64,000 bases of DNA from Candidatus Woesearchaeota archaeon (GTDB lineage: Archaea; Nanobdellota; Nanobdellia; Woesearchaeales; JABIAG01): contig JABIAG010000002.1 in the NCBI GenBank assembly GCA_018653365.1, positions 1-64,000 of the forward strand, given 5' to 3'. The notes under the pieces were generated by a model that did not search any database, was not told the DNA's origin, and was given only the letters and a program-made list of their open reading frames with translations. Positions within the stretch are counted from its first letter, which is position 1; every line of letters starts with the position of its first letter. Below, one piece after another: positions 42,121-43,711 of this stretch. Both the position numbers and the translations under genes were made by a program.

Positions 42121-42214
42121 TGGGGCAACCGGGATTTATGTCATCACTTCGTTCTGGACAAATCCCTATTGTTTGTAAACCAATTTAGGATAAGAAATGG
42201 GGCAACCGGGATTT
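42121..42214 (-). repeat. 17-bp duplicate of the tRNA-Phe 3' end (42121-42137 / 42198-42214) with a 60-bp hairpin spacer
   Basis: Exact repeat tggggcaaccgggattt. Confidence 0.92.
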
Positions 42215-42302
42215 GAACCCGGGACACCTGCGTCTTCAGCGCAGCGCTCTCCCAGTCTGAGCTATTGTTCTGGTTTCAAAAGCCGTAACTTCCAAAATCC
42301 CC
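42198..42302 (-). tRNA. tRNA-Phe(GAA) with a 31-nt acceptor-stem intron (42268-42298, position 4/5)
   Basis: Spliced sequence GGGG^CAA TA GCTC AGACTGGGA GAGC G CTGCG CTGAAGA CGCAG GTGTC CCGGG TTCAAAT CCCGG TTGCCCC A; BRE/TATA at about 42335-42352. Confidence 0.88.
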
Positions 42303-42430
42303 AGTAAAACCCAGACAAGGTTAGGATTTATCATATATTTAAATGCTTTTCGTTTTTTTTCACTGGACATTTTTGTGCTGCACTGGACAAACGCTGCCCC
42401 AAAGTTTATAAAAAAACTTGATTCTGTTTT

Positions 42431-42573
42431 AAAAGAGCCTCGCGCAAAACTCTTTACAAAAACTTTTCCCTCAAAGAGGTCGGAACTGGTGTTCCTAAAA
42501 GTTTTTTGTGAGTTTCGCTGGTTGAGTCTCTTTTTTTGCCAAATCCAAAGTTTTGTGTAGTGAAAACTTTGGA
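42431..42573 (+). ncRNA. Structured leader or small RNA upstream of the LAGLIDADG gene
   Basis: Long interrupted stem 42431-42534 with two internal hairpins and a T7 tract, plus a perfect 11-bp hairpin (42544-42554 / 42563-42573) overlapping the RBS. Confidence 0.5.
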
Positions 42574-42583
42574 GGTTAAGAAA

Positions 42584-43330
42584 ATGAATAAAAAACCACT
42601 TTTAGTATTTGATGATGTATTAAGAACATACAAGTCTGAATATCACGGAAGAAAAGCATTTGAGAGTTACATGTCTTGGTTTCCGTTAATAGTTTCCCCT
42701 TGTCTTGCGGGAATTGTTGCAGATTTAATGTGTGATGGACATTTACAAGGTAAAAAATGGAGGTTTGATTACACTTCCAATTCTATTGAAGAGTTAGAGA
42801 GATTCAACAGAACGATTCATTCTTTATTCAAAGTTAAAGGTAAAGTAAGAAAGTGTACAACCAATAAATATGAAACTTTTAATCTAGGTGTAAATAACAG
42901 TCCTTTAGCAAGAGTGTTGAAACTTCTAGAAGTCCCTGCAGGAGCCAAGGTTTTATCTAGTTTTTCCATTCCTGATTGGATTCTTGCTGATAAGACTCTG
43001 TTTGGTAGATTCATAAATCGTTTAGTTAGTTGTGAAGGGTCTGTTGATGTAAAAAATAAATGTATTGACATTAGAATGTCAAAGTCTGAAGACTTGATTG
43101 TTGACGGTTTGTCATTCTTCAAAGATATTCAAAATTACTTGTGGAATTATTTTGAGATTAAAACAACAAACCCTTTTTTAGATCGAAGTTTCAATTTAAG
43201 AAAAGATGGGATAAAAACAAAGACGATCCGACTAAAAATAAAAAGGAAAGAATCTCTTATAACTTTCAACAAATTCATAGGTATTGATGATAAAATTAAG
43301 AATAAAAAATTAAAAAGAATAATTGGTTAA
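42584..43330 (+). CDS. Free-standing double-motif LAGLIDADG homing endonuclease
   Basis: LAGIVADLMCDG and FINRLVSCEG motifs; GGAGGT RBS before ATG 42584; no intein ends. Confidence 0.85.
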   Translation: MNKKPLLVFDDVLRTYKSEYHGRKAFESYMSWFPLIVSPCLAGIVADLMCDGHLQGKKWRFDYTSNSIEELERFNRTIHSLFKVKGKVRKCTTNKYETFNLGVNNSPLARVLKLLEVPAGAKVLSSFSIPDWILADKTLFGRFINRLVSCEGSVDVKNKCIDIRMSKSEDLIVDGLSFFKDIQNYLWNYFEIKTTNPFLDRSFNLRKDGIKTKTIRLKIKRKESLITFNKFIGIDDKIKNKKLKRIIG

Positions 43331-43711
43331 TTATTCTACAACTTCTTCTTCAACTGAACTTTCAGGTGTTTCTTCAGCTTCATCAGGTGATTCAGTTGGT
43401 GCAGCTTCTGTTGCGGGTGTATCTCCACTTACAACTTCTAACTTACCAAACTTACCTGTGGATAATTGTAATTCGCCTTGCCATTCTCCAACCCAGCCGT
43501 TCTCAATATGGATTTTGTCTCCAACGTTTACTTTGTCTACGTCTTCATTCCATAGTGTGAGTGTTACTGTTCCTGTTGAGTCTTTTACTGTTGCATTACA
43601 TACTTTGCCTGATTTTCCGAACTTTTCGAACTCTCTTGCTTCTGCTTTTTCTGCAACTTCTACTACTACATCTACATTTCCTGTTTTTGCTTTTAGATCT
43701 TTTATTTCCAT
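43331..43711 (-). CDS. ssb: Single OB-fold ssDNA-binding protein (SSB/RPA)
   Basis: KDSTGTVTLTLW, IENGWVGEWQGELQL, acidic tail. Confidence 0.88.
   Translation of the reverse strand: MEIKDLKAKTGNVDVVVEVAEKAEAREFEKFGKSGKVCNATVKDSTGTVTLTLWNEDVDKVNVGDKIHIENGWVGEWQGELQLSTGKFGKLEVVSGDTPATEAAPTESPDEAEETPESSVEEEVVE

Follow-up and report, generated by a model that had tools for sequence, protein, structure and literature searches.

LAGLIDADG endonucleases of the I-DmoI and I-PorI type are encoded inside archaeal rRNA introns. Non-canonical bulge–helix–bulge (BHB) introns of archaeal tRNA genes are well known, among them an acceptor-stem intron between positions 3 and 4 of some Thermoproteales tRNAs (Sugahara et al. 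2008, cited in PMC4090602); position 4/5 is not among the intron positions listed in the review from which we take this comparison (PMC4090602). Here we describe a 31-nucleotide (nt) insert between mature positions 4 and 5 of a tRNA-Phe(GAA) gene, found on the minus strand of a window (the whole stretch of DNA analysed) of 64,000 nt from a Candidatus Woesearchaeota archaeon (GenBank assembly GCA_018653365.1, contig JABIAG010000002.1, positions 1 to 64,000). Our reading, to which we give a probability of about 0.8, is that the insert is a functional BHB intron in the only tRNA-Phe gene found, that its splicing is assisted by the 5′ leader of the transcript, and that it arrived recently with the insertion of a homing-endonuclease gene.

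The insert resembles the Thermoproteales 3/4 intron in being short and, by prediction, protein-spliced, in lying in the 5′ strand of the acceptor stem, outside the anticodon loop, and in having a 3-4-3 BHB with the splice sites in the bulges; in both cases the host genome is rich in interrupted tRNA genes. It differs in its position and in its host, a small-genome, DPANN-type archaeon with a single alpha-type splicing endonuclease (EndA) and not an (alpha-beta)2 enzyme, and also in that a conserved leader element is predicted to help build the motif. In the split and permuted tRNAs of Nanoarchaeum equitans, Caldivirga, Thermofilum and Cyanidioschyzon, it is pairing of leader or trailer that builds the BHB (PMC4090602, PMC4033280, PMC3218864). 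There, as is proposed here, sequence that is not part of the mature tRNA, and is lost in the course of maturation, forms the pairs by which the motif is built and clamped; at the present locus, by contrast, the pairing would be made in cis, within one transcript, between the 5′ leader and the D-arm of exon 2, and the leader would be removed by RNase P after ligation.

A further comparison is with collaborative homing, as described for the free-standing endonuclease F-CphI and the psbA group I intron of cyanophage S-PM2 (Zeng, Bonocora and Shub 2009, cited in PMC6083498). In both cases a free-standing endonuclease gene co-occurs with a neighbouring intron that does not itself encode an endonuclease, and the strongly conserved sequence into which the intron is inserted could plausibly be cut by the enzyme. 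The differences are that an archaeal BHB tRNA intron and a LAGLIDADG enzyme take the place of a group I intron of a phage and an enzyme of the Endo VII type, and that cleavage near the intron site and protection by the intron are here putative. With the enzymes of the I-DmoI and I-PorI type the locus shares a LAGLIDADG enzyme tied to a BHB intron of an archaeal stable RNA gene; unlike theirs, the gene is not contained in the 31-nt intron but is found 281 nt upstream, encoded on the other strand, and has a promoter of its own as well as a long leader. A literature search of partial coverage found no paper that links archaeal tRNA introns, including those of DPANN archaea, to free-standing homing endonucleases.

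The interrupted tRNA-Phe gene

The genome under study (G000) measures 1.09 Mb, with 34% G+C, and its assembly is 94.9% complete in three contigs. Other genomes and contigs used for comparison carry G and L numbers; G002 and G001 belong to the same genus as G000, and L025 is a metagenome contig. Forty relatives were searched with the locus, and metagenome and genome collections were scanned with the exon-2 sequence. The parts of the gene are as follows.

42299–42302, minus strand: exon 1 of tRNA-Phe, GGGG, mature positions 1–4; GGGG+CAA pairs 7/7 with TTGCCCC
42268–42298, minus strand: 31-nt intron at position 4/5, with homologous introns in 20 further genomes; it consists of A, TTTTGGAAGT (5′ arm of the inner helix), the TACG loop, GCTTTTGAAA (3′ arm), CCAG (42273–42270) and AA
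42198–42267, minus strand: exon 2 of tRNA-Phe(GAA), mature positions 5–73, CAATAGCTCAG...TTGCCCCA, from ARAGORN and Rfam

Read on the minus strand, the locus (42198–42316) is gtCTGGGTtttaCT, then GGGG, the insert ATTTTGGAAGTTACGGCTTTTGAAACCAGAA, and CAATAGCTCAGACTGGGAGAGC...GGTTGCCCCA. The 3′-terminal CCA is not encoded; TTTCTT follows directly. The borders of the insert require no fold for their definition, because the intact genes of G002, G001 and L025, in which the 31 nt are not present, read GGGGCAATAGCTCAG without interruption; the insert therefore lies exactly between positions 4 and 5 and its borders cannot be slid. Over exon 2 the identity to the G002 gene is 100%, and the predicted spliced product equals that gene base for base. 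These relatives bear out the first-pass annotation, made from the sequence alone, in which an intron at 4/5 was said to split the acceptor stem and its excision to give a perfect GGGGCAA/TTGCCCC stem: removal of 42298–42268 does so, and a 7/7 stem is regained in 20/21 related genes (see below). Such restoration of the cloverleaf on removal of the insert is what an archaeal protein-spliced (BHB) intron should show.

It had also been anticipated that tRNA finders might call the gene truncated or missing. This is not what happens: both ARAGORN and Rfam call a full-length tRNA-Phe(GAA) at 42198–42271, with a misplaced 5′ end. The call begins within the insert, so that its first four bases, AGAA, are intron bases and its 5′ acceptor strand becomes AGAACAA. 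Rfam scores the intact G002 gene, with its clean acceptor stem, at 66.8 bits and the unspliced G000 call at 49.5 bits, with three of the seven acceptor pairs non-standard (A-C mismatches, 1:72 among them). A second tRNA-Phe, the presence of which would bear on the need for splicing and for which the first-pass annotation had advised a check, was not found in the 94.9% complete assembly; the DNA search gave one locus only, and the introns implied by ARAGORN's two ‘Phe(aaa)’ calls in G000 are improbable.

The splice motif

The minimum free energy (MFE) fold of a local 51-nt segment consists of a CUGG/CCAG helix, a GGA bulge, a 10-base-pair (bp) stem and a UACG loop. The central (H) helix is formed by leader positions −2 and −1 with G1 and G2, which pair with CCAG of the intron.

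42303–42304, minus strand: leader −1 (T) and −2 (C), completing the 4-bp H helix CTGG/CCAG; from fold and comparison

The 5′ bulge is composed of G3, G4 and the first intron base (GG^A) and the 3′ bulge, which follows CCAG, is AA^C. The elements thus appear in the order outer helix, H, bulge, inner helix with loop, H′, bulge, outer helix, which is the correct order for an archaeal BHB. The geometry is shared by 21 genomes: two 3-nt bulges separated by a 4-bp helix, with the predicted cut in either bulge falling behind the second base. The fold matches exactly the helix, bulges and TACG-capped inner helix drawn in the first-pass annotation. When the borders were held fixed and the 31 nt shuffled, an H helix of 4/4 together with an inner helix of at least 4 bp was obtained in 173 of 200,000 shuffles; the inner helix of the real insert has 10–11 bp.

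The same intron across the order

The intron was sought in 401 genomes of the order with the pattern TGGGRA-N18-40-CCA-N6-TAGCTCA. There were matches in 22 genomes from 21 genera, against a single match for the reversed control. One match (G119) was rejected as a false positive, which leaves 21 genuine carriers of the 4/5 intron in 20 genera. The locus of G191 is cut by a contig end, hence the acceptor 3′ strand was checked in 20 of the 21; in all 20, exon 1 and exon 2 together pair 7/7 with the downstream acceptor 3′ strand, which is followed by discriminator A, and nine acceptor types are represented. Every intron-bearing gene has the anticodon GAA, and most contain additional introns. The 4/5 intron ranges from 27 to 34 nt, with a 5′ bulge of GGA in 19 genomes and GAA in two.

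The inner helix is conserved in structure and not in sequence. At pairs 1–9, 179 of 189 cells are paired (95%), as against 88–111 when the partner is slid by one or two positions. The helix is paired from its first pair in 21/21, up to six pair types occur at a position, and there are 20 distinct arm sequences among the 21 genes. Since pairing is kept while the arms differ, this variation is compensatory change under structural selection, which a dead scar would not show. It should be noted that pairs were counted by structural register in scripts, as a MAFFT alignment of the 21 leader–intron segments misregisters the leader, the spacer of which is variable in length.

Two observations concern the wider sampling of the order. 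A tRNA-Phe of another family (G009; L018, C28, about 1545–1580) lacks the 4/5 intron and has an insert of ~33 nt between the anticodon stem and the T arm. Records of metagenome-assembled genomes from the genus of G000 include L026 (CAYRWJ010000007.1) and L027 (CAZLQZ010000017.1), of ~1 Mb; the order comprises more than 130 families of small genomes.

The 5′ leader as a proposed clamp

It had been proposed from the sequence that the motif depends on the leader through positions −2 and −1. As far as −2 is concerned this agrees with the comparison: the pair with the intron is formed in 15 of the 21 genes (A-T in 12, C-G in G000, T-A in G195 and G.T in G138) and mismatched in six. The share of the leader appears, however, to be larger than was thought, since a conserved hexamer further upstream pairs with D-arm positions 10–15.

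42309–42314, minus strand: leader hexamer CTGGGT, positions −12 to −7, opposite D-arm 10–15 (GCTCAG); from complementarity and folds
42334–42343, minus strand: TATA-like box TTTAAATATA, 32–41 nt upstream of G1; read from the sequence

A hexamer YTGRGY, starting at −11 to −13 and complementary at 6/6 positions to D-arm 10–15, occurs in 20/21 intron genes and in 0/19 intronless ones from the same order; 3.5% of shuffled leaders reach such complementarity. It is because the hexamer pairs with the D-arm in the intron genes and not in the intronless ones that we suppose the leader to supply the outer clamp of the motif. Closer to the tRNA, leader −4 pairs with position 7 in 18/21 (C-G, T.G or T-A) and leader −3 with position 6 in 5/21. 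In G000 the hexamer and its neighbours, −14 to −6 (42316–42308), form 9 bp with positions 9–17, and a helix between leader and D-arm is predicted in 18 of the 21 local folds. Folded from −14 without constraints, the complete G000 precursor has an MFE structure (−41.6 kcal/mol) in which the 9-bp leader helix is joined by the H helix, the bulge GGA and the inner hairpin; the value is −30.1 kcal/mol when the mature acceptor stem is forced and the intron is left as a side hairpin.

The outer helix had been described as weak and the BHB as relaxed. This description stands for the −3:6 pair and not beyond it, where a leader:D-arm helix of 6–9 bp follows a small internal loop. In the predicted structure, the motif is accordingly relaxed at the pair beside the 3′ bulge, yet clamped just beyond by the helix between leader and exon 2. 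In archaea, the position of a TATA-like box indicates where transcription starts. The box found here predicts a start near −14 to −11, and hence a short leader that would contain the hexamer.

Processing machinery and a proposed pathway

A BHB intron requires a splicing endonuclease and a ligase, and both are encoded. G000 has one EndA gene (C1:14503–15036; L021 1474–2007, minus strand), the product of which has 177 amino acids (aa) with PF01974 and PF02778 domains and is nearest to the catalytic subunit of N. equitans and to the homotetramer enzyme of M. jannaschii. Its catalytic Tyr–His spacing is that of M. jannaschii, and it is without the six-residue insertion that precedes the catalytic His in the N. 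equitans alpha subunit. No second EndA subunit with PF01974 or PF02778 was detected in G000, even at E ≤ 10. RtcB is present (565 bits), as is RNase P RNA.

We envisage the following pathway. The primary transcript would begin about 11–14 nt upstream of G1, and its leader would pair with exon 2, −12 to −7 (probably −14 to −6) with D-arm 10–15 (9–17) and −4 with position 7, while −2 and −1, together with G1 and G2, would pair with CCAG of the intron as the 4-bp central helix. This helix would be bordered by the 10-bp hairpin of the intron and by two 3-nt bulges, GG^A and AA^C, and the single alpha-type endonuclease would cut each bulge after its second base. The 5′ piece of ~18 nt (leader and GGGG) would then be held on the body of the tRNA by the leader:D-arm helix until RtcB joins G4 to C5. 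The GGGGCAA/TTGCCCC acceptor stem and the D stem could form only after ligation, whereupon RNase P would remove the leader. Splicing should precede RNase P because an intron 4 nt into the tRNA would need the leader both for the motif and to hold the tiny 5′ exon; this order, as given in the first-pass annotation, is favoured by the conservation of the leader and by the predicted fold (−41.6 versus −30.1 kcal/mol).

A homing-endonuclease gene and the origin of the intron

Two genes upstream of the tRNA are relevant to the origin of the intron.

42584–43330, plus strand: free-standing double-motif LAGLIDADG homing-endonuclease gene, 248 aa; from motifs, Pfam and profile
43331–43711, minus strand: SSB-like (OB-fold) gene, the stop codon of which abuts that of the endonuclease gene

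The endonuclease gene is divergent from the tRNA and its product contains the motifs LAGIVADLMCDGH and FINRLVSCEGS. Pfam LAGLIDADG_3 matches 5/7 orthologs (best E 1.4e-11), and a profile of the orthologs matches the endonuclease domains of V-ATPase inteins (7QSS/7QSU). In G002, G001 and L025 the tRNA starts ~17–27 nt past the stop of the SSB-like gene and no endonuclease gene is found at the syntenic site. In G000 the end of the SSB-like gene (43331) and the start of the tRNA (42302) are further apart, and the extra 1,028 nt contain the 248-aa open reading frame (ORF). It thus seems, from this comparison of loci, that the intron reached G000 recently, in an insertion of ~1 kb together with the LAGLIDADG gene, promoter and leader. 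A source within the same genome was considered and rejected: a blastn-short search with the 31 nt found no second copy in G000, the best match being of 13 nt.

Orthologs of the endonuclease (49–54% identity) occur in six of 400 other genomes, which belong to six families and do not include any of the genus of G000. Five of the six lie 100–220 nt from a tRNA-Phe with a 4/5 intron, in divergent orientation, and the sixth is at a contig edge. No paralog of the enzyme was found in G000 at E ≤ 1. One mark of collaborative homing, the co-occurrence of a free-standing endonuclease gene with a neighbouring intron that lacks one, is therefore present. One intron locus (G302) contains a 35-aa remnant of the endonuclease, and at 14 of the 21 there is no detectable endonuclease gene. 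By analogy, this distribution is the pattern of a homing cycle and resembles collaborative homing. Acceptors of the GGGGACG type are found in 12/21 intron genes versus 1/19 intronless ones, a hint that the tRNA gene as a whole is often carried along with the cassette; unlike this pattern, exon 2 of G000 is native sequence.

We can therefore formulate a more general scheme, to which we would give about even odds. The endonuclease gene, promoter, pairing leader, GGGG and intron, often with a whole tRNA-Phe gene, would constitute a mobile cassette that homes into intronless tRNA-Phe genes among Woesearchaeales-like archaea. The enzyme would cut the conserved 4/5 region and the intron would shield its carriers; by bringing its own leader, the cassette would let a host EndA of narrow specificity splice at a site for which the tRNA body by itself does not suffice to form the motif. 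Once the cassette was fixed, its endonuclease gene would decay and leave an orphan intron.

Two loci of other genomes merit separate description. In G226 (L034, C34) a second tRNA 3′ end and flank, GGTTCCCCAtctttttaattct, lies ~90–110 nt downstream of the endonuclease-linked tRNA-Phe (..CGTTCCCAtctttttaattct); the second copy is preceded by a leader-like motif, GTTGAGC, and has the appearance of an end left stranded when a resident gene was replaced. In G105 (L036, C1, 1–290) the endonuclease ortholog is at the start of the contig, with TGTCCAGTG upstream of it and a possible orphan ‘GGGA + CCAA’ fragment; no recognizable tRNA-Phe body was seen in this 290-nt contig start.

Weighing the evidence

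A number of points count against the account given above, in which a leader-assisted BHB intron interrupts tRNA-Phe. The local fold is weak by energy alone (z about −1.1), with AU/GU-rich structure. A strict hBHBh′ motif, in which the flanking helices are paired up to the bulges, is not what is seen, as −3:6 is A×A in G000 and the pair at this position beside the 3′ bulge is absent in 16/21 genes. In local folds of the 21 genes the H helix is found in eight, because G3G4 can replace G1G2 opposite CC, and in 13/21 it is G3G4 that is paired there. Positions 2–4 of the H helix have no independent weight because the search pattern fixed them, and position 1 (leader −2) is the one free test. The 21 carrier genomes are kin and hence not independent, and two of them (G212 and G316) are unpublished, although without both (n = 19) no conclusion is altered. 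The sole EndA found is of alpha type and shows no insertion when compared with the strict M. jannaschii enzyme. In published work, alpha4 (and alpha′2) endonucleases are held to need strict hBHBh′ motifs (PMC3239211), and an association is reported between disrupted tRNA genes and DPANN alpha4 enzymes that have an extra loop (PMC5829648). Finally, that the RNA is spliced, where its transcription starts and in which order it is processed are all predictions from sequence.

The alternatives nevertheless fare less well. It is conceivable, though we think it unlikely, that the intron is spliced and the leader is dispensable, EndA needing only G1G2/CC, the bulges and the hairpin, with the hexamer being a promoter, an initiator or a DNA-level feature of the cassette. 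The mismatches at −2 in 6/21 and at −3:6 in 16/21 would fit this, as would the three H positions forced by the search, and since all the loci derive from one cassette, descent may explain part of the conservation. However, the hexamer is kept in 14 loci that have neither an endonuclease gene nor a remnant of one, while nearby leader bases and the intron arms have diverged, and it is this that argues for a role in RNA. The hexamer varies, moreover, at three positions only (Y opposite G15, R opposite T12 and Y opposite G10), by transitions that preserve pairing with GCTCAG, and −4 covaries with position 7. Without the leader, the 4-nt exon 1 would be held for ligation by four G-C pairs alone.

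That the insert is an unspliced scar and the locus a pseudogene, tRNA-Phe being supplied from the unassembled ~5% of the genome or by a host, strikes us as very improbable. DPANN archaea rely on hosts for much else; the assembly, in three contigs, is 94.9% complete, and the locus is rearranged, with ~1 kb inserted upstream and a 77-nt duplication downstream. Against a scar stand the retention of the interruption in 21 genomes from 20 genera, where the inner helix has changed in a compensatory way and the intact exons restore a 7/7 stem, the 100% identity of exon 2 to the intact G002 gene, and the failure to find any other tRNA-Phe-like sequence in the assembly. Least credible, to the point of being almost negligible, is that the tRNA is used as called, with RNase P cutting at 42271/42272 to give the 5′ acceptor strand AGAACAA. 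ARAGORN and Rfam do accept this form above threshold (49.5 bits), but the A-C mismatches in 3/7 acceptor pairs, 1:72 included, and the GGGG at positions 1–4 in relatives oppose it, and it would leave the upstream GGGG, the BHB and the conservation of both without explanation.

Flanking repeats and other elements

Downstream of the tRNA two further features were recorded, both outside the intron.

42121–42137, minus strand: second copy of the tRNA 3′ end, AAATCCCGGTTGCCCCA, a repeat at an offset of 77 nt
42138–42197, minus strand: 60-nt spacer with core GTCCAGAACGAAGTGATGAC between GGATTT and AAATCC arms

The flank beyond the second 3′-end copy is the ancestral downstream flank, as it matches the flank that follows the tRNA in L025 and G002. 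Two interpretations of the repeat were rejected. An intron in the T-loop ending at the second copy would require a BHB, and none was found in the 18 registers of the 77-nt offset (at best H 3/4, inner helix 3 bp, outer helix 0). An integrase attachment (att) site is not supported either: the repeats enclose 60 nt only, with no ORF, and the same spacer core lies behind two other tRNAs.

Spacers of ~60 nt are in fact found behind tRNA-Phe, tRNA-Lys(CUU) and tRNA-Ser(CGA), the latter two on C1 (about 350220–350283 and about 230060–230124). They have a common core, GTCCAGAACG...CGAAGTGATGAC (with tandem G-A and a C-box-like GUGAUGA), between GGATTY and RAATC arms, and each is followed by a 12–17-nt copy of the 3′ end of its own tRNA, with no integrase and no BHB. 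A core AGAACGAAGTGATG is shared between these spacers and 33-nt units elsewhere in G000, of which there are three in tandem with CTCAGAACGAAGTGATGTTG at C1:592197–592290 and single copies at C3:93655 and C3:105484.

The ~230 nt between the tRNA promoter and the ATG of the endonuclease gene (42361–42595) are repeated upstream of three unrelated ORFs of G000 (C1:719046–719261, C1:751718–751855 and C2:126405–126550). The repeat contains two sequence elements, the TGTCCAGTG motif and the TTTATAAA box, and two helices, of which one is long-range (AAAAGAG...CTCTTTT) and the other a 10-bp hairpin, CCAAAGTTTT/AAAACTTTGG, reaching to the GGAGG before the ATG; it looks like a shared structured 5′ leader or a regulon element. 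Two copies of the sequence TGTCCAG(TG) precede the tRNA TATA box (42361–42369 and 42381–42389), and a third is in the downstream spacer (42152–42160). In G126 (L035, about 2275–2283) and G105 (L036, about 224–232) this 9-mer is found in the interval that separates the endonuclease gene from the tRNA.

The tRNA genes of G000 number 29 according to ARAGORN and 27 according to Rfam, with many odd intron calls; the intron borders given by ARAGORN cannot be relied on, and several introns are present in many of the genes. Non-canonical introns, or more than one intron per gene, must conceal a large part of the tRNA set.

Implications

The immediate consequence is for annotation. Standard tRNA finders misplace the 5′ end of an essential tRNA-Phe, and the same error is to be expected in ~5% of the genomes of the order. 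An intron 4 nt into a tRNA also yields a clear and testable prediction about the order of processing, namely that splicing comes before RNase P. That a genome full of odd introns apparently has only a plain alpha-type EndA bears on the co-evolution of intron diversity and endonuclease architecture (PMC3239211, PMC5829648). Because the intron seems to have arrived recently beside a homing-endonuclease gene, and intronless sister genomes are available, the gain of an archaeal tRNA intron can here be tested directly, and the association with a selfish endonuclease gene suggests a possible route by which such introns spread. In a 2014 review, the mechanism by which non-canonical archaeal tRNA introns are gained was called unknown (PMC4090602). 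If the cassette scheme is true, it would provide a concrete DNA-level mechanism for that gain.

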